Source: an uncultured Clostridia bacterium
Lineage (GTDB): Bacteria > Bacillota > Clostridia > TANB77 > CAG-508
Reading direction: 5' to 3'
DNA: 64,000 nt
Assembly: GCA_934130355.1 (NCBI GenBank)
Contig: CAKOXV010000001.1
Span: 23,524-87,523 of the forward strand
Below the pieces are notes generated by a model that was given only the letters and a program-made list of their open reading frames with translations, had not been told where the DNA came from and made no database searches. The translations under genes and the position numbers were made by a program. Shown here piece after piece: positions 10,562 to 58,380 of this stretch (the stretch's first letter is position 1; each line of letters begins with the position of its first letter).

Positions 10562-10855
10562 GCACAATTGCCATATATATATATTGAAAACATTCCAAAT
10601 TTTGAACAAGCTAAACTTTCACATAAAATCTAATAGTGCAAAAAGAGCCTCTTTCACTTAGTCCAAAAATTAATATATTACTATGAAATAAAGCAAAGAC
10701 CCCCGACGAAGACCCTAGCTATGTTTTTGCTATTGAATAGTAATATATTAATTTTTGACGTGAACATTCCTCTTTTTGCACTTAAGATTTTCTATGCTCA
10801 AATTTAGATGCGCAAAATTTTTCATTATTCAATATATATGATATGGCAATTGTGC
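10562..10855 (-). repeat. Extended-hairpin element, copy 1 (294 bp, inverted orientation relative to copies 2 and 3)
   Basis: It shares the conserved core and the apical loop (cccccgacgaagaccc on the + strand) with 15759-16097 and 24719-25061. Its own basal stem is gcacaattgccatat.../...atatggcaattgtgc. Confidence 0.9.
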
Positions 10856-10887
10856 TAAACTATACATTTAATTTTAAGCATATTATT

Positions 10888-15722: not shown

Positions 15723-15758
15723 TTTTTTTTATTTTATTTATTACAAATTAAAATATAC

Positions 15759-16097
15759 CCTAATTCAAGTGGTACTCCAGGGGGTCGGGTCCATACATAT
15801 ATATTAAATAATGGAAAATTTTGTGCATCTAAACTTGAGTATAGAAAATCTTAAGTGCCAAAAGAGGAATGTTCACGTCAAAAATTAATATATTACTATT
15901 CCATGGCAAAAACATAGCTAGGGTCTTCGTCGGGGGTCTTTGCCTTATTCCATAGTAATATATTAATTTTTGGACTAAGTGAAAGAGGCGCTTTTGGCAC
16001 TATTAGATTTTATACGAAAGTTTAGCTTGTCCAAAATTTGGAATGTTTTTAATATATATGTATGGACCCGACCCCCTGGAGTACCACTTGAATTAGG
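15759..16097 (+). repeat. Extended-hairpin element, copy 2 (339 bp)
   Basis: The first 50 nt (cctaattcaagtggtactccagggggtcgggtccatacatatatattaaa) are the perfect reverse complement of the last 50 nt. The interior is an imperfect hairpin shared with copies 1 and 3. Confidence 0.95.
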
Positions 16098-16152
16098 ATA
16101 ATTAAGGGAAAAAAAGAAAGAGATTTAAAACTAATCTCTTTCTTGTAAATTT

Positions 16153-16170
16153 AAGGACTGTCCCCAAATT
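16153..16170 (-). repeat. Copy of the short dispersed motif AATTTGGGGAC(A/G)GTCC
   Basis: The + strand reads aaggactgtccccaaatt. It lies between the nrdD stop and its terminator hairpin (aagaaagagatt...aatctctttctt). Confidence 0.7.
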
Positions 16171-22998: not shown

Positions 22999-24600
22999 TT
23001 ATCCTTTAAAATCTCCTCCTCCTAAAAATTCTTTCAATAATGAATGTGATGGCACAATATCTTTAGAAATTGGTTCAAAAGAATCTAAAATCTCTAATAA
23101 TCTTTGTGCTTCTGCATATTGTGGTTGTTCATTAGTTATAGCTTTTAGTAATGGTTCAGCTTCTGTTTTTAACACTCCTAATTCATATATTAGTGAAGTA
23201 TTAAATATGCTATCAGCTTCTTCTTGGAATGGGAAGATATTTTTTACTTCGCCTGCATTTACATTCTTCCAACTTGAAATTGTTTGTGCTGCACTATATC
23301 CTCTAAATTGATTATCTCTAACTATTCTTCTTATCAGTCTTGTATCTGTTGTAGAAATTCTATTGAAACGATCCATATTAAGAACTGTTAATGCACTTAT
23401 ATAAATCTTGTATTTTTGTTCTTGAGGGATTCTTGAAGTTAATTGATCATTTAAACAGTGAATTCCCTCTATTACTAATATTTCATCATCATGTAATCTT
23501 AATTTATTTCCATTATATCTCTTAGTTCCTTCATGAAAATCAAATTCTGGCATTTCAACTTCTTCACCATTTAATAAAGCTATTAAATGACTATTGAATA
23601 ACTCTGTATCAATAGCTTCTATGCACTCAAAATCAGGTTCACCTTTTGCATTTAATGGTGTGTCTTTTCTTTCTACAAAATAATTGTCAACAGAAATTGT
23701 AACAGGTTTTAATCCATTAATTCTTAATTGAATTCCTAATCTTTGAGCAAAAGTTGTTTTTCCTGATGAAGATGGTCCTGCAATTAAAATCATTTTAACA
23801 CCTTTTCTTGCTGCAATTTTATCTGCTATTTGTGATATTTTTTTCTCATGCAAAGCTTCTGATAATAATATTAAATCTTTGATTTTATTTTCTCTTACTA
23901 TTTTATTTAATCTATATACAGTGCCAACATCTAATACCTTATAAATTGTTTCATATTCTTGTAAAGCCCAAAGCAATTTTTTAGTTTCTTTAAATTGAGG
24001 CAAAACATTTACATTATTACTACTTGGATATCTTAATAAAAATCCATAACTATATTTTTGTAACTCAAAAATTTTAGTTGCTCCTGTATGTGTTGCTATT
24101 GTTCCATATAAATAATTAAAATAATCTTCGCAAAAGCACATATTAATTTCTTGCTTTTCTTCTGATTCAAGTTGTAAACGTCCTTTTGTACTATCCTTTT
24201 CATTGAAAAATTCTTCTGCTTCTTTTCTTGTCATAGTTCTTTTTTCTATTTTTAAATCTTTTTCAATTATTTCTGCCATTTTAATTTTTACATTTTCAAG
24301 CATTTCTGTTGTTACTTCCATATTTTCTATAGTACAATACATTGAATTTGATAATTGATAATCTACCATTACATCTACTTTTGGATATAGTTTCCAAAAT
24401 GCCATACCCATTATATAAGTTAAAGTTCTTCTATATATTTTCATTCCTTCTTTTGAATTTATATTAATTAATTCAATTTTTCCATCTGGTTCAACTACAT
24501 CATCTAAGTTTTTATATTCATTGTTATATTTAGCCCCTACTACTGGGTATTCACTTTTTTCTATTTCTTCTTTTCGTATTTCTGATATTTTTTGTTTCAT
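22999..24600 (-). CDS. Uridine kinase-family P-loop nucleoside kinase with an N-terminal ThrRS-like (TGS/SAD-type) extension
   Basis: 533 aa with P-loop IAGPSSSGKTTFAQRL in the C-terminal half. The architecture is as seen in clostridial long Udk-like proteins. Confidence 0.65.
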   Translation of the reverse strand: MKQKISEIRKEEIEKSEYPVVGAKYNNEYKNLDDVVEPDGKIELININSKEGMKIYRRTLTYIMGMAFWKLYPKVDVMVDYQLSNSMYCTIENMEVTTEMLENVKIKMAEIIEKDLKIEKRTMTRKEAEEFFNEKDSTKGRLQLESEEKQEINMCFCEDYFNYLYGTIATHTGATKIFELQKYSYGFLLRYPSSNNVNVLPQFKETKKLLWALQEYETIYKVLDVGTVYRLNKIVRENKIKDLILLSEALHEKKISQIADKIAARKGVKMILIAGPSSSGKTTFAQRLGIQLRINGLKPVTISVDNYFVERKDTPLNAKGEPDFECIEAIDTELFNSHLIALLNGEEVEMPEFDFHEGTKRYNGNKLRLHDDEILVIEGIHCLNDQLTSRIPQEQKYKIYISALTVLNMDRFNRISTTDTRLIRRIVRDNQFRGYSAAQTISSWKNVNAGEVKNIFPFQEEADSIFNTSLIYELGVLKTEAEPLLKAITNEQPQYAEAQRLLEILDSFEPISKDIVPSHSLLKEFLGGGDFKG

Positions 24601-24718
24601 CTTATCTACTCCTTCTATAATTTACTTAGGTTTTCATCCCTATTTTACTATATCTATTTTTTAAAAGCAAGTAATATTACTATGTGGTACAAAAAATAGT
24701 TAATATTTTAATATATTG

Positions 24719-25061
24719 CTTACCACAAATACCTTGCACGCACCCTTGGACCTGTACATATATATTAAATAATGGAAAATTTTGTGCATCTAAACTTGAG
24801 TATAGAAAATCTTAAAGTACATACACGAGGAATGCTCACATCAAAAATGAATATATTACTATTCCATGGCAAAAACATAGCTGGGGTCTTCGTCGGGGGT
24901 CTTTGCCTTATTCCATAGTAACATATTCATTTTTGGACTAAGTGAGAGAGGCTCGGGTTGTACTTTTAGATTTTATACGAAAGTTCAGCTTGTCCAAAAT
25001 TTGGAATGTCTTTAATATATATGTACAGGTCCAAGGGTGCGTGCAAGGTATTTGTGGTAAG
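24719..25061 (+). repeat. Extended-hairpin element, copy 3 (343 bp perfect-armed part; imperfect pairing continues to 24700-25080)
   Basis: cttaccacaaataccttgcacgcacccttggacctgtacatatatattaaa is mirrored exactly at the 3' end. The core is shared with copies 1 and 2. Confidence 0.95.
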
Positions 25062-25144
25062 TAATATGTTAAAGTATTAATTAGTAGTAAAAAATATGAA
25101 TATTTATATTATATATGTATATAATTATTTTAGAGGTGGTATAA

Positions 25145-26548: not shown

Positions 26549-26622
<74 letters not shown>

Positions 26623-26654: not shown

Positions 26655-26728
<74 letters not shown>

Positions 26729-28358: not shown

Positions 28359-28916
28359 CTAAATTTCTGATGTTTTTCCGTTTATTGCTATTGTGCCTGT
28401 TGCTGTTGCAGCTATTATGTGAATATCTCCTTGTGTTGCATTATAATAAAATTTCTTTAATGATTGTGCTAAAGTTTTGTTGTTATTTTTAACTGTTACT
28501 AATATTTCATCACCTTGTTTTAAAACCAATCTTCCATAACCACTTTCATCACTTGTACTTCTAATTTTTTCTTCGATTTGTGTAGTAAAAATAGAATAAT
28601 ATGTATTATTTCCTACTTGACCTTGTGAACCATATTCATCAACTACTTTTTTAGCACTGTTTTGGTCTAAAATTTTTACTTCAATATCAATGTCATAAGT
28701 ATTTCCTGAAGAACCTAATGCTGATACCAATTGTTGATATCTTTTTGATGTTATTTGTCCTGTTTTAATAACTTCATCAACAAATTCTGCTGTAGCAGTT
28801 TGAACTAATAATTGTGATATATCATCAGCTCTTTCTGATACTAATAGTAATGGCACCACTAACATTATAATTATAGCTGTAATTATTCCTATAATATCTA
28901 TTAAGGTTTCATCCAT
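28359..28916 (-). CDS. Membrane-anchored protein, last gene of the Tad-like locus (possible minor pilin/TadE-like role)
   Basis: 185 aa with a single N-terminal TM (IDIIGIITAIIIMLVVPLLLV), an RBS, and tight spacing to the upstream gene. Confidence 0.4.
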   Translation of the reverse strand: MDETLIDIIGIITAIIIMLVVPLLLVSERADDISQLLVQTATAEFVDEVIKTGQITSKRYQQLVSALGSSGNTYDIDIEVKILDQNSAKKVVDEYGSQGQVGNNTYYSIFTTQIEEKIRSTSDESGYGRLVLKQGDEILVTVKNNNKTLAQSLKKFYYNATQGDIHIIAATATGTIAINGKTSEI

Positions 28917-28935
28917 GTTGTTTTGTTTCTCCTTT

Positions 28936-29502
28936 CTATTGTTGTAAAATATATGTTATAACTCTTTTAGTTATTTTTGTTGCTCCTGTTCCTTGGTCAT
29001 ATTCTCCTAATTTTTCTTCAAATTTTGAATTTTTAAATTTTTGATATATTCCTTCATTATAAACTATTCTATTTCTATATTTATCTTTTATTTCATCACT
29101 TTTAGTATTTAGAGTTTCTGTTCCGCCAAGTATTATATCTAGATGTTCTCTAACTGCTGCTTGGCTTGCAAATCTCTCATTTTCAAGGTCTATACAAGAA
29201 ATTTCATTATTGTCTTCATCTCTGTATAATGTAAGTTTTTTACCAGTACTATCAAAAAAGTAAATTTCTATATTTTCTTGATATGCTCTATACATTGTTG
29301 AAACCACTGTTTCTATTCCTACAGTTCTTGAAAGATTCTCAGATGGCTCTACATACATATATTGTGTTTCTCTATCTCTTAATTCTATTATTGCTTTTAC
29401 AGATCTTGTTGCTTGAGAAAAAGAAGATATACTTAATGTTAATGCCATTCCAAACAACAATATTGCAAATGCAAATTTTAGTGCTCCTGCTGCATTTTCC
29501 AT
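28936..29502 (-). CDS. Flp/pseudopilin-like protein with MENAAGALKF N-terminus
   Basis: 188 aa. The N-terminus is related to the three MENxTKALLIAA paralogs. AAGGAG RBS is present. Confidence 0.5.
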   Translation of the reverse strand: MENAAGALKFAFAILLFGMALTLSISSFSQATRSVKAIIELRDRETQYMYVEPSENLSRTVGIETVVSTMYRAYQENIEIYFFDSTGKKLTLYRDEDNNEISCIDLENERFASQAAVREHLDIILGGTETLNTKSDEIKDKYRNRIVYNEGIYQKFKNSKFEEKLGEYDQGTGATKITKRVITYILQQ

Positions 29503-29523
29503 AAATATATCTCCTTTCTACAA

Positions 29524-29970
29524 TTATTCTTCTGTTATTGTGATTGTATCAACAAATCCTGTTGTAGCATTCATTGAAACTTGTACTGTATATAATTTAG
29601 AAGTATTTGCCATAGAAGTTGGTGCTAATGTTGTTGCATTTTTGGCTAATATTACAGTTTCACCTTTTTTTACATCAATAAATTTAGGACTTGGTTTACT
29701 ACTATCTGTTGAAATTGTTAAACCTTCTGAACTGCTTTTCATGTTACTTGCTAATACTGTATTTAACATTGCATTAACTTCACTACCTCTACGGTGTTGA
29801 CCTTGGTATTGTGTGAATTGATCATTAAATGCTGTTATTTCTTGTCCAGAAAAGTTTACTGAATCTATTGTTTCAGATGCCATTCTATAAACTACTATTC
29901 CTAAAGATATAATTAATACTGCTATTAATACTGCTGCTGCAATTAATAATGCTTTTGTTGCGTTCTCCAT
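29524..29970 (-). CDS. Flp-like pilin paralog (MENATKALLIAAAVLIAVLIISLG...)
   Basis: The start was moved to the ATG at 29970, which is preceded by GGAGGG. The hydrophobic N-terminal helix resembles a mature Flp/type IV pilin N-terminus. Confidence 0.55.
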   Translation of the reverse strand: MENATKALLIAAAVLIAVLIISLGIVVYRMASETIDSVNFSGQEITAFNDQFTQYQGQHRRGSEVNAMLNTVLASNMKSSSEGLTISTDSSKPSPKFIDVKKGETVILAKNATTLAPTSMANTSKLYTVQVSMNATTGFVDTITITEE

Positions 29971-30042
29971 ATATAATTCCCTCCTTTTTTTCATTTATTT
30001 ATATGTAACTTTCGACATATTTGCCGAACTTTAATAACGATT

Positions 30043-30471
30043 TTATACTTGTTCAAATAAAATATAACTAATTTTTCCTGTTGATTTATGATATTCTATT
30101 TTTGAACATTTAAATTTTTCTTTTCCATAATATTGTGCAAATTTTTCTGTTCCTCCATTATAAAATGTTTCCATTTTATAACTTGTTTCATTGTCTTTTA
30201 TATATATTTCTATTTCGATTGAATTTTGTGTATTTTGTATAAATTCTTTTTTATCATCTTGCTTTATTTCATTTTTAGTATTTTTATCAACTGCTTTATT
30301 AATTAATGTAGCAACTTCTAGACCATAAACTTCTTTATCTTTATATTTTTCAAATTCTTCATTTTCCTGAGCAATTACGCTCTTTTCTGCTCTATAAGAA
30401 AGATATCTTGTCATAAATGTTACTACAACAATTATTATAGCAATTCCAATAAATGTAAATACTTTTTTCAT
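30043..30471 (-). CDS. Small membrane-anchored protein within the pilin gene block
   Basis: 142 aa with N-terminal TM KKVFTFIGIAIIIVVVTF. It does not have the MEN-type N-terminus. Confidence 0.4.
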   Translation of the reverse strand: MKKVFTFIGIAIIIVVVTFMTRYLSYRAEKSVIAQENEEFEKYKDKEVYGLEVATLINKAVDKNTKNEIKQDDKKEFIQNTQNSIEIEIYIKDNETSYKMETFYNGGTEKFAQYYGKEKFKCSKIEYHKSTGKISYILFEQV

Positions 30472-30520
30472 CCTTTTTCCTCATTATAACATCTAATTTT
30501 TTATTTTGCAACATAATTTT

Positions 30521-30949
30521 TTAGTTATTTTGAAAGCTTATTTTATATACTCTTGCTGTTGTGTCACTAATATCTACAGTGTTACAAGTATATGTTTTTT
30601 CTAGATTATTATTTAGCAAATTGGAAATATAATAACTTGAATTCATATTTTGGATTTCGCTTTCTATTTGTGCACCATTTAGGTATACTTCAACATAAAA
30701 AGAGCTATTATTATTGTTTTCAAATGCCATATTTGCTACAGTAACTACATCTTGAATTGTTAAATTTGATTTTCCTAAATATTTTGTATACTGTGTATTA
30801 AATGTATTTATTTCATTGTTCATTATTCTTTCATTTGAACTTGCTACATAATTTGCTAATTCATTATATAATGCTAATCCTAAAGACATTATCATTACTC
30901 CTATTAGCAATCCTGCAGCTATTAACATAGCTTTAGTTGCGTTTTCCAT
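30521..30949 (-). CDS. Flp-like pilin paralog (MENATKAMLIAAGLLIGVMIMSLG...)
   Basis: 142 aa, paralogous N-terminus. Confidence 0.55.
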   Translation of the reverse strand: MENATKAMLIAAGLLIGVMIMSLGLALYNELANYVASSNERIMNNEINTFNTQYTKYLGKSNLTIQDVVTVANMAFENNNNSSFYVEVYLNGAQIESEIQNMNSSYYISNLLNNNLEKTYTCNTVDISDTTARVYKISFQNN

Positions 30950-30966
30950 TAAAGCTTTCCTTTCTT

Positions 30967-55930: not shown

Positions 55931-58288
55931 ATGAATAGCAATTTAAAAAAATTAGAATTTGACAAGATTTTAGAAAATATATCAAATTATTGTAAAACAT
56001 ATATAGGGAAAAATTATGTAGCAGATTTACGACCATCACATGACAAAGAAGAAGTGCAAAAATGGCTAGATGAAACATCACAAGGAGTTATATTAATTCA
56101 AAGAAATAGCACTCCTCCACTTGGCGAAATTGCTGATATAACAGTTTATTTAAAAGCTTTAGAGAGTTATGGTACTCTTAGCATAAAAGCTTTATTAGAA
56201 ATTCAAAACATTTTGCGAATGTCTATGAATTTAAAAAATTATTTTGAAAAAGATTTTCTTGAAACATCAGATTTTTCTGCAATTGAACAATATTTTCTTG
56301 ATTTATATTCAAATCCAAGTATTGTATCCACTTTTGCAAAATCAATTGTTGATGAAGATACTATTGCAGATACAGCTTCTTCAAAGTTACAAGATATTCG
56401 TAGAAGAGAACGTAAAATTGAACAAGATATCCGTTCAAAACTAAATACTATTCTACATTCATCAACATATTCAAAATATATGAGAGAAAATATTGTAACA
56501 ATACGTAATGGACGTTTTGTAGTTCCTGTTAAAGAAGAATATCGTAGCTCAGTTAAAGGGTTTGTACATGACATGTCAAGTAGTGGTTCAACTGTATTTA
56601 TAGAACCTATTTCAGTTTTTGATTTAAATAATGAATTATCAAATCTACATATTGAAGAAAGTCTTGAAATAGAAAGAATTTTGCAAAATTTAAGTGCTTC
56701 TCTATATCCTTACACAAAAGAACTTGAAAATAATGTTCAAATAATAGGAAAACTTGATTTTATATTTGCAAAAGCACATTATTCTTTAGACTTACATTGT
56801 TCTGAGCCTGAAATCAATTGTTCTAAAATAATAAGACTTAAAAATGCACGTCATCCTTTAATAGATCCTGAAAAAGTAGTTCCATCTTCTTTAGAATTAG
56901 GAAATGATTTTTCAACTTTAATAATTACAGGTCCAAACACAGGTGGAAAAACTGTAACTCTAAAAACAATTGGTTTATTAACAGCAATGGCCTGTAGTGG
57001 ATTAAATATCCCTGCTGACCAACATTCAAGCATATATGTATTTGACCACATTTTTGCGGATATTGGAGATGAACAAAGTATTAGTGAATCTTTAAGTACT
57101 TTTTCATCACATATTAGTAATATTGTAAATATTACTAATAATGCTACAAAAGACAGTTTAATTCTTGTAGATGAACTTGGCTCTGGAACAGACCCTCTTG
57201 AAGGTGCACATCTTGCAATAAGTATTTTACAATATTTTACTGAACTTGGTGCAATTACTGTTGCAACTTCACATTATCAAGAATTAAAACAATATGCATT
57301 AATAACTCCTCGTTTTAAAAATGCTAGTGTTGAGTTTTCTTTAGAAAGTTTAAAGCCAACTTACAGATTATTGATTGGAATCCCTGGAAAAAGTAATGCT
57401 TTTGAAATAAGTAAAAAATTGGGGCTTTCTCCTCAGATTATAGAACGTGCTTTATCTATGATTGACAAAGAAACTATTCATCTAGAAGATTTACTAAAAA
57501 CTATTTATGATGATAAAGCTAAAATTGAGGATGAAAAAATTCGTACAGCTAAAGCTTTAGCAGAAGCTGAAGAATTGAAAAAAAGTTTAAAACATCAAAA
57601 TTCAGATGTTATAAATAAAGAAAAAGAATTAATTGCTAATGCTAAACAAGAAGCTAAACAAATTTTGCTTGATGCAAAAGAAACTGCAAATTCTATAATA
57701 AAAGATATAAACAATTCTACTTCAGCTTCTAGCGCTAATAAACTTAGAAACAAACTAAACGAACAAATATCATCTATAAAGACTGATGTTAAAGATATTT
57801 CAATTTCTGAACCAATTAAGCCTGAAGATATAAAATTAGGTGAAACTGTTTTTGTTTCTAATTTAAATGCACAAGGTACTATAATTTCTAATATTTCTAA
57901 AGATAATACTGTCCAAGTTCAGGTTGGTTCAATGAAAATGAAAGTTGATTTAAAGTATTTGCAAAAAGTTTCTGGTCCTGATTCTACCAATAAATCTAAG
58001 GCTCAAACTCATTATGAACATTCTTCATTTAAATCTCAACATGTGAGTCCAGAGATAAATGTAATTGGTTTAACTGTAGATCAAGCAATTCCTATTATTG
58101 ATAAATATTTGGATGATTGCTATATTGCAAAACTTTCTCCTGTTCGTATTGTCCATGGTAAAGGCACTGGTGCTTTGCGTAATGGTATTCACTCTTACCT
58201 AAAAAGAAATAAATATGTTGATAGTTTTAGACTTGGCTCTTTTAGTGAAGGTGAAATGGGCGTTACTGTTGTTAGTTTGGCAATTTGA
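55931..58288 (+). CDS. mutS2: Endonuclease MutS2 (recombination-inhibiting MutS paralog with Smr domain)
   Basis: Walker A ITGPNTGGKT, DELGSGTDP, and a C-terminal Smr (EINVIGLTVDQA...VRIVHGKGTGALR). The start was moved to the ATG at 55931 after GGAGG. Confidence 0.93.
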   Translation: MNSNLKKLEFDKILENISNYCKTYIGKNYVADLRPSHDKEEVQKWLDETSQGVILIQRNSTPPLGEIADITVYLKALESYGTLSIKALLEIQNILRMSMNLKNYFEKDFLETSDFSAIEQYFLDLYSNPSIVSTFAKSIVDEDTIADTASSKLQDIRRRERKIEQDIRSKLNTILHSSTYSKYMRENIVTIRNGRFVVPVKEEYRSSVKGFVHDMSSSGSTVFIEPISVFDLNNELSNLHIEESLEIERILQNLSASLYPYTKELENNVQIIGKLDFIFAKAHYSLDLHCSEPEINCSKIIRLKNARHPLIDPEKVVPSSLELGNDFSTLIITGPNTGGKTVTLKTIGLLTAMACSGLNIPADQHSSIYVFDHIFADIGDEQSISESLSTFSSHISNIVNITNNATKDSLILVDELGSGTDPLEGAHLAISILQYFTELGAITVATSHYQELKQYALITPRFKNASVEFSLESLKPTYRLLIGIPGKSNAFEISKKLGLSPQIIERALSMIDKETIHLEDLLKTIYDDKAKIEDEKIRTAKALAEAEELKKSLKHQNSDVINKEKELIANAKQEAKQILLDAKETANSIIKDINNSTSASSANKLRNKLNEQISSIKTDVKDISISEPIKPEDIKLGETVFVSNLNAQGTIISNISKDNTVQVQVGSMKMKVDLKYLQKVSGPDSTNKSKAQTHYEHSSFKSQHVSPEINVIGLTVDQAIPIIDKYLDDCYIAKLSPVRIVHGKGTGALRNGIHSYLKRNKYVDSFRLGSFSEGEMGVTVVSLAI

Positions 58289-58295
58289 CAAAATA

Positions 58296-58360
58296 GGGAC
58301 GGTCCTTTTCTTCGCAAATTTGGGGACAGACCTTTGTTAAAAAAAGGACCGTCCCCATTT
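58296..58360. repeat. Three copies of the GGGGAC(G/A)G(T/A)CC motif, two direct and one inverted, forming the mutS2/spoVT convergent terminator region
   Basis: The sequence reads gggacggtcctttt, then aatttggggacagaccttt, then ggaccgtccccattt. Confidence 0.8.
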
Positions 58361-58380
58361 TGTCACCTTGCCATTTATTC

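Follow-up and report, generated by a model that had tools for sequence, protein, structure and literature searches.

The three hairpin repeats in the stretch of DNA analysed here (64,000 nt, in the following called the window) are on balance probably copies of a non-autonomous, TA-flanked fold-back element, a selfish MITE-like repeat, the arms of which have repeatedly been copied from each other. The window is a segment of a bacterial chromosome with a G+C content of 29 per cent, and carries housekeeping genes, tRNAs and one tmRNA. The three copies, A, B and C, are near-palindromes that form units of about 294-385 bp around a common 270-nt imperfect-hairpin core (Table 1). Two further loci, D (contig L018) and E (contigs L030 and L014), were found outside the window, which makes five in roughly 100 kb of the species; about six copies were examined in this work. 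A first-pass annotation of the window had reported the same hairpin at three loci, and this was confirmed at all three positions, the 270-nt cores being 92-94% identical (relative to B, 93.7% for A and 91.8% for C).

Table 1. Positions of the hairpin copies and their parts in the window
Feature	Position	Strand	Remarks
Copy A, whole unit	10562..10855	-	294 bp, reverse orientation
Copy A, arms	10562-10576 / 10841-10855	-	GCACAATTGCCATAT
Copy A, core	10571..10840	-	U1 stem 10664-10684 / 10737-10757
Copy B, whole unit	15758..16098	+	341 bp including arms
Copy B, left arm	15759..15808	+	50 nt, exact reverse complement of 16048-16097
Copy B, right arm	16048..16097	+	50 nt
Copy B, core	15796..16065	+	270-nt imperfect hairpin, also in A and C
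Copy B, apical unit U1	15879..15972	+	perfect 21-bp stem 15879-15899 / 15952-15972
Copy C, whole unit	24699..25081	+	383 bp
Copy C, left arm	24719..24769	+	51 nt perfect, pairs with 25011-25061
Copy C, right arm	25011..25061	+	51 nt
Copy C, core	24757..25025	+	differs from other strain in inner ~110 nt

The copies are built in layers. The apical unit U1 (95 nt) is surrounded by an imperfect shell of ~87 nt per side, and the shell by terminal inverted repeats, which are called arms here. The U1 stem of B encloses an asymmetric, G-rich loop; this loop and the internal loops, as quoted in the annotation, are present and conserved among the copies. A boundary of the common sequence does exist, but it lies ~8 nt further out than had been drawn (consensus GGNCCATA/CATATATATT), and the innermost 13 nt of the left arm of B (CATATATATTAAA) are common to the other copies. 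Outside the boundary each copy had been said to continue into an exactly self-complementary stem of its own. This applies to B (50 nt) and C (51 nt), the stems of which differ, but not to A as it is found in the window, where the perfect arm is only 15 nt long beside a 1-nt gap; in other strains (contigs L024 and L027) the gap is filled and 26-28 nt pair perfectly. In C, the pairing extends 22 nt further outward (24697-24718/25062-25083) with four mismatches, all of which are G·T on one strand. The 50-bp stem of B is free of mismatches and rich in G+C, as described: the unique parts of the arms have 54% G+C in B and 50% in C, and 50% or more is reached by only 0.7-0.8% of the local 37-nt windows. 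The outer 22-40 nt of the C arms are AT-rich and have a genome-like composition.

Within the window, each arm is indeed unique, as the annotation had it, but the arm of A recurs in copy E outside the window and part of the arm of C can be aligned with both. The E arm GGTCCAATTGTGC aligns with the A arm GG--CAATTGTGC and with the C arm GGTCCAAGGGTGCGTGC, and in the left arm of C it is the inner, GC-rich part that aligns. The arm of B has little similarity to the arms of the other copies; the inner arms have a GGNCC(A)TA motif in common. If the left arm of E is taken to mirror its right arm, 2 nt have been lost from A at corresponding places in each arm; the left arm and the left junction of E were never seen, contig L030 beginning inside the element. 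Because the arms of A and E and the inner arm of C are homologous, the arms are related between copies and not private to them, and the most suitable view of the GC-rich inner arm is that it represents the ancestral terminal repeat of the family. The suggestion that the stems are a programmable, copy-specific module was not supported by these comparisons: in addition to the homology, the arm is absent from the allele without E (see below), and no phage or viral match was obtained. A foreign origin of the arms, which the annotation had proposed to look for, found no backing either, since BLAST searches against phages gave no match and the 20-21-mers of the arms had zero matches in IMG/VR. A tRNA or rRNA fragment as the source of the arms was considered and dropped because there was no Rfam signal.

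Folding of B with its arms yielded -173.8 kcal/mol as compared with -75 for shuffled sequences (z = -16.9), and the opposite strand folded equally well (z = -20.4). Pairing is preserved through paired changes: 9 of 97 pairs changed on both sides, and 98.6% of the cells are paired. This pairing statistic was matched by 1 of 500 shuffles, and slid registers gave 0-1 two-sided pairs. The recent one-sided changes led to G·U in four cases and to A·C in four. The lack of a G·U bias points to DNA rather than to RNA, and the equality of the two classes gives no indication that selection acts on one RNA strand. The outer arm of C departs from this balance, 4/4 mismatches there being G·T on the same strand.

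Comparison of strains showed that copies arise, become truncated, decay and receive patches of sequence from other copies. In contig L014, copy E consists of 67 nt of the right core end and 10 nt of arm. Further alleles of this locus were recovered by following the neighbouring cupin gene. In L030, which has the uncut right end, the sequence reads ...AATATATATG/TATGGTCCAATTGTGCTAG/TAAACGTTTTG; in L028, L029 and L031, from which copy E is absent, it reads ...CTCATT/TAAACGTTTTG, with neither arm nor palindrome. The L014 allele corresponds to the L030 form from which a microhomology deletion has taken the first 27 codons of the cupin gene. The conserved flank at E is ordinary AT-rich, non-palindromic DNA with a TA at the junction. 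Because the arm is missing from the strains without E, it is part of the variable segment in which the element lies, and not of the resident right flank. Since the alleles differ by a larger leftward replacement and the left junction of E was not seen, the "empty site" is not proof of a clean insertion. Copy D, located 9 kb past the right end of the window, is a relative in decay: the tip has the opposite orientation to the shell, one half of the U1 stem is deleted, a small perfect palindrome has taken the place of part of the loop, and the copy no longer folds (z = -0.8).

Smaller differences are also concentrated in the copies. Over 12.4 kb compared between the window and contig L002, 9 of 13 differences fell inside B and C, which account for 6% of the length, and eight differences lay within 112 nt of the inner core of C (24835-24946). 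Copy A has 11 variable columns, and the intergenic DNA outside it has 1; many of the variant states in A are those of other copies, and L025 carries a C-type patch on one arm. This concentration, with states that match other copies, is the pattern of gene conversion between copies. The contigs of the species come from human-gut metagenomes; A, B and C are present in all, and several contigs end inside a copy. Assemblies were repeatedly interrupted within copies of the hairpin repeat.

Copy B sits between the terminator of nrdD (16114-16144) and the promoter of hrcA with its CIRCE operators, antisense to both neighbours. Copy A is in the 3' region of dnaJ, in sense orientation and upstream of trpS, and C lies between two divergent genes, a PRK-like gene (22999-24600, minus strand) and sspH (~25146, plus strand). 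The orientation of the copies to the adjacent genes is inconsistent, and promoter-like sites within or beside the copies were not above chance. The hrcA-grpE-dnaK-dnaJ operon is bracketed by 270-bp inverted repeats of the element. The dnaJ-trpS intergenic region is 473 nt long here as compared with 154-211 nt in relatives, which are without the element and whose intergenic regions, at 84-87% DNA identity, are too diverged for exact placement of the junctions. The element is also absent from a relative in which nrdD adjoins hrcA.

Both B (15756-15757 and 16099-16100) and C (24697-24698 and 25082-25083) are flanked by TA. Copy A has TA at 10856-10857, on the dnaJ side; its trpS-side flank is not TA. 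The ends read TA/C/CCTAATTC...GAATTAGG/A/TA in B and TA/G/TTAATA...TATTAA/T/TA in C. The right end of E reads ...GTGCTA/G/TA, and the empty allele also has TA at the junction. The core itself is bordered by TA in B, C and E as well. Judged from these ends, a 2-bp TA target duplication for the whole unit is possible. Because TA is self-complementary it merges into the palindrome, and a duplication is indistinguishable from the inverted repeat. This is why a clear target-site duplication was not apparent in the annotation.

The annotation had called the family unrecognised, and the database searches agree with this. With Rfam 15, nothing reached the gathering score for any copy; the lowest E-value was 0.012, at half of the gathering score. 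The core had no BLAST match in phage and plasmid records. Exact-pattern scans with the apical motif gave zero matches in IMG/VR, none that was genuine in JGI metagenomes (one chance match in GC-rich DNA) and one genuine match among species-representative genomes, in L001, an uncultured Clostridia MAG. A 20-mer from the core end had one match in IMG/VR, which was judged to be due to chance. The L001 MAG is the only related sequence outside the species in these large collections. It shares only the apical ~95 nt (U1), with 95% identity to copy A, and there U1 is centred in a different, imperfect, terminator-like hairpin with a stop codon immediately before and a T-run after. In the 21-bp U1 stem, three base pairs differ on both sides between L001 and the species of the window, i.e. 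the changes are compensatory. A covariance model of U1, run over ~200 kb, found no further copies. Concatenated spurious ORFs read from the element were also used as a query against 5.8 billion proteins, the aim being to find gene calls that run into copies at other places; the one match, P0121, led to copy E.

As the annotation had stated, no transposase or reverse transcriptase partner was seen: the larger ORFs across the 64 kb are without transposase, reverse transcriptase, integrase or other recombinase domains, the window contains no Y1 transposase domain or RAYT gene, and neither a transposase nor a full-length parent element was found in the ~100 kb of species sequence covered. Three other candidates were rejected. 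A coding small ORF was dismissed because the internal ORFs have 20-48 codons and their frames differ between copies; the likeness of the core end to a dif/Xer site was weak, AT-driven and judged by eye; and the link to the GGGGACNGTCC motif family was dropped, the resemblance being loose only.

Among the readings offered by the annotation, a fold-back mobile element is the one favoured by the absence of copies from strains and relatives, by the truncated and decayed copies and by the TA flanks. According to the mechanism that we propose, the whole unit, arms included, would move, probably into TA sites, by means of a transposase that is encoded at another place in the genome and acts in trans. 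The TA flanks suggest an IS630/Tc1-mariner-like enzyme, though none was seen; as no transposase was found and only ~100 kb of the genome was covered, mobility in trans is something that we infer. When a single strand folds back during replication or repair, one arm would be re-copied from the other by template switching within the hairpin. Such re-copying would yield the perfect stems and the apparently matching 2-nt deletions in both arms of A, compensatory double substitutions without the wobble bias typical of RNA, the inverted tip and the new mini-palindrome of D, and outward growth of the palindrome, as exemplified by the AT-rich outer 22-40 nt of the C arms. The tip might be kept constant by recognition by a mobilising or host protein, or by gene conversion between copies. 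Any influence on adjacent genes would be a side effect; the hairpin of A in the dnaJ 3' UTR could be a terminator or a target of RNase III.

Arm-to-arm copying does not explain everything. It leaves unaccounted for the conservation of the internal loops of the shell with their mismatches, the low similarity of the arm of B to the others, and the near-equal lengths of the perfect tracts (50 and 51 nt) together with the four G·T mismatches of the outer C arm. The element could also be a transposon defined by structure, in which the enzyme would read the conserved apical hairpin instead of the termini and cut at the end of the extruded stem, and the ~50-nt termini would be rebuilt by hairpin-templated synthesis with every move. 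The ends of such an element would drift, capture flanking sequence and grow in layers, yet stay perfectly paired. This would account for the constant tip and variable ends, for the tracts of 50 and 51 nt and for the matching indels of both arms, and it would explain the layered series from L001 (tip only) through copies D and E to copy C. We think this reading unlikely. In a weaker variant, the long perfect duplex could have a role at the RNA level too.

Also unlikely in our estimate is that the stems are the halves of host palindromes split by a nested insertion. In that case a TA-targeting core (TA/CATATATATT...AATATATATG/TA) would have entered the central TA of palindromes that already existed, for instance the hairpins of terminators or short palindromic repeats belonging to an older family. 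The TA dinucleotides that border the core in B, C and E would fit such an event, as would U1 at the centre of a terminator-like hairpin in L001, the placement of copy A where relatives have the dnaJ terminator, and the occurrence in the genome of GC-stem terminators with a ATATATAT loop (e.g. 37405-37426); GGNCC(A)TA of the inner arms could be the target consensus. However, an uninterrupted palindrome of the arm type was not found (GGNCCATATGGNCC had 0 matches in the window), the window and loci L001-L016 contain no other perfect inverted repeat of at least 23 nt, and in the window the arms of B and C occur solely beside their own cores. Moreover, bacteria, in which palindromes are subject to SbcCD-dependent instability, are not expected to retain perfect palindromes of 74-120 bp, and the allele without copy E is not palindromic at the junction. 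Old host palindromes should also be less perfect than the young core, and the reverse was observed.

Alternatively, the arms could derive from the target: once the core had inserted, one local flank would have been copied in inverted form to the other side, through fold-back priming or template switching, and in each copy one of the two arms would be original chromosomal sequence. The mechanism is documented for the expansion of inverted repeats, and it would be compatible with the variable arm lengths (15, 37-38 and 60 nt) and with the genome-like composition of the outer arm of C. As an account of the arms in general it is rather improbable, because the inner arms have 50-54% G+C, a level reached by 0.7% of the local 37-nt windows, because homologous arms are found in A, E and C although the loci are unrelated, and because the right arm of E is absent from the resident right flank. 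The outermost layers probably owe something to flank copying, which for those layers is included in the fold-back explanation that we prefer.

The possibility of a functional structured RNA, raised by the annotation, was also considered. A hairpin transcript of ~170 bp with a variable basal duplex, possibly processed by RNase III or serving as a guide-like module, would be in keeping with the strong covariation and with the sense orientation of A and L001 behind a gene. Furthermore, the tip AGGGUCUUC-GUC-GGGGGUCUU forms its pairs only in the RNA of a single strand, with the help of G·U, and a U-rich tail comes after it; the four G·T mismatches of the outer arm of C are all on the strand whose tip pairs as RNA. 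We nevertheless hold this explanation to be decidedly improbable. B runs antisense to the genes on either side, with a terminator at one flank and a promoter at the other, C is between divergent genes, and, as described above, promoters at the copies did not exceed chance expectation and G·U was not preferred over A·C among the recent one-sided changes. A match in Rfam was lacking, close relatives are without copies, some copies are truncated or decayed, and in D the tip is inverted relative to the shell and the loop replaced. A conserved partner gene beside the copies was not found, and a guide function is further opposed by the arms being unmatched in phages and in the viral contigs of IMG/VR.

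Finally, an invertible DNA switch, in which 50-bp inverted repeats are the sites of an invertase that flips the 240-bp interior, is highly improbable: long perfect inverted repeats around a segment of ~240 bp with an asymmetric interior, the inverted tip of D and the reported inversion of Correia elements (PMC10969869) would suit it, but the window is without a recombinase, A, B and C have one and the same internal orientation in all independent assemblies, and the interior is nearly palindromic, so that flipping would alter little.

If the preferred reading, a fold-back repeat with arm-to-arm copying, is right, what selection or mechanism acts upon is the tip and the pairing itself, and not the terminal sequence. 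The family would then be a natural system in which copying between arms generates "compensatory" changes, symmetric indels and growth of palindromes, and this bears on how covariation evidence for RNA structure is to be read. In practice, metagenome assemblies break at the element, which is also a hotspot of differences between strains and is associated with deletions.

The closest known kinds of element are MITEs that are hairpins over their whole length (Correia, ERIC) and the TA-duplicating MITEs of the IS630 type. Like MITEs, the present units are short (294-383 bp) and have no conserved coding sequence, they end in inverted repeats (50 nt in B, 51 nt in C and 26-28 nt in A of L024 and L027), and they are dispersed and vary in presence, E being absent from L028, L029 and L031 and A from relatives. 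Correia elements are flanked by a TA duplication. The Correia (nemis) elements of Neisseria and the ERIC sequences of enterobacteria are likewise small, non-coding, dispersed, mostly intergenic and variable between strains, and in them, too, the entire element is an imperfect palindrome, the transcript of which is a stable stem-loop. Correia elements can invert, and when they are transcribed RNase III cleaves their inverted repeats (PMC10969869). In Correia and ERIC the conserved part is the termini, whereas in the present family it is the tip, and the termini diverge, yet are perfectly complementary within each copy; the present units are also longer, about 294-385 bp with perfect terminal repeats of 26-51 bp, and have no sequence similarity to Correia or ERIC. 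MITEs of the IS630/Tc1-mariner group (e.g. RUP of Streptococcus pneumoniae) share the TA on both sides, the AT-rich target context and the non-autonomous character, but neither an IS630-family transposase nor a matching terminal repeat was found here.

REPINs, the REP doublets mobilised by RAYT, are also dispersed hairpins in which pairing is kept by compensatory change, and presumably it is the single-stranded hairpin form that is recognised. One report describes them as ~100 nt long and composed of two REPs of 20-40 nt tagged GTAG or CGTC, with a poorly conserved loop (PMC3733652). The present units differ in being ten times longer than the 20-40 nt REP units, in having the loop as their best conserved part and in that no RAYT was seen. 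Three other kinds of system were compared as well. Invertons are set apart by the single orientation in all assemblies and by the window being without a recombinase; CRISPR-like guides by arms that are unmatched in phages and IMG/VR and homologous between copies, and by the lack of associated genes; and retron ncRNAs by the lack of a reverse transcriptase domain in the window.

Template switching in inverted repeats (quasipalindrome mutation) is a replication error in which the nascent strand takes the opposite arm as its template; as described in four reports, it homogenises and expands the arms, inverts the spacer and mimics compensatory substitution (PMC8604942, PMC13100816, PMC8794818, PMC7202029). 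The process fits the perfect arms, the apparently symmetric deletion of A, the paired substitutions and the flipped tip of D. It is, however, a mutational process and not an element, and leaves the dispersal to new loci and the conserved mismatched loops unexplained. In the fold-back transposons of eukaryotes (FB of Drosophila, Galileo) the terminal inverted repeats are very long and vary in length, and the arms evolve in concert. As in the present units, the inverted repeats make up most of the element; the differences are that FB and Galileo are eukaryotic and kilobase-sized, that their arms are internally repetitive and that in some members the transposase is known. Compared with ordinary MITEs, the family described here is unusual in combining a constant tip with divergent, self-complementary ends, the opposite pattern of conservation, as the first-pass annotation had already recognised.

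The hrcA-grpE-dnaK-dnaJ operon is wholly enclosed by copies A and B of the fold-back hairpin repeat, which lie 4955 nt apart and, as 270-bp inverted repeats, are 94% complementary to each other. With this arrangement, homologous recombination between the two copies would be able to flip the operon. In strain L004 copy A is absent, dnaJ is divergent (82% identity), and a patatin gene is found downstream of dnaJ in place of trpS.

Compared with L002, another strain of the same species, the window strain has compensatory changes at two base pairs in the inner stretch of copy C, one from T·A to C·G and one from T·A to G·C, and no difference in 450 nt of flanking sequence. Compensatory changes in a copy with identical flanks suggest conversion from a more diverged, unseen copy elsewhere in the genome. 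At the locus of copy E, which lies outside the window, strains of the species differ by a replacement (322 nt in L014 versus 2.5 kb in L028), whose right breakpoint is the exact position of copy E. The replacement adjoins a larC-like gene that is cut short at about 60 codons, and genes for a large serine recombinase and an integrase are located a few kb upstream.

Features of the window and of the copy E locus (window positions unless a locus is named)
Feature	Position	Strand or place	Size
Copies A and B, inverted repeat pair	10571-10840 and 15796-16065		270 bp each
Copy C, inner stretch with strain differences	24835-24946		
Strain-variable replacement at copy E	L014 10001-10736; L028 3394-6324		
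Perfect palindrome TAAGGGCATATATATGCCCTTA	37405-37426		22 bp
Short repeat motif family	16155-16165, 39771-39808, 58295-58356		
Six tandem 42-nt units	1-336	left window edge	
Two near-identical tRNA genes	26552-26622 and 26658-26728	minus	
Eleven consecutive ORFs	28359-38766	minus	142-688 codons

The palindrome, made up of a GC stem and the loop ATATATAT, which is similar to the sequence at the outer edge of the hairpin repeat's core, sits between two minus-strand genes, is followed by a T-run, and is likely a bidirectional terminator. T-runs also follow the motif of a second, short repeat family, (AA)TTTGGGGAC(G/A)G(T/A)CC, which contains the small palindrome GGAC-N-GTCC and has seven matches against 0.47 expected. 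One copy lies directly past the nrdD stop codon, two form tandem 27-nt units (39745-39819), and three are held in a 96-nt hairpin (58278-58373).

The 42-nt tandem units are 84-95% identical, except for the last (64%), and probably represent a repetitive coding region extending past the window edge. The tRNA genes are spaced 106 nt apart. Ten of the eleven consecutive ORFs were scanned against Pfam, with zero matches; an N-terminus of the type MENATKALLIAAAVLI is common to three ORFs of the run (repeat D3). The run as a whole may be a gene cluster, so far undescribed, for a surface or pilus-like structure.
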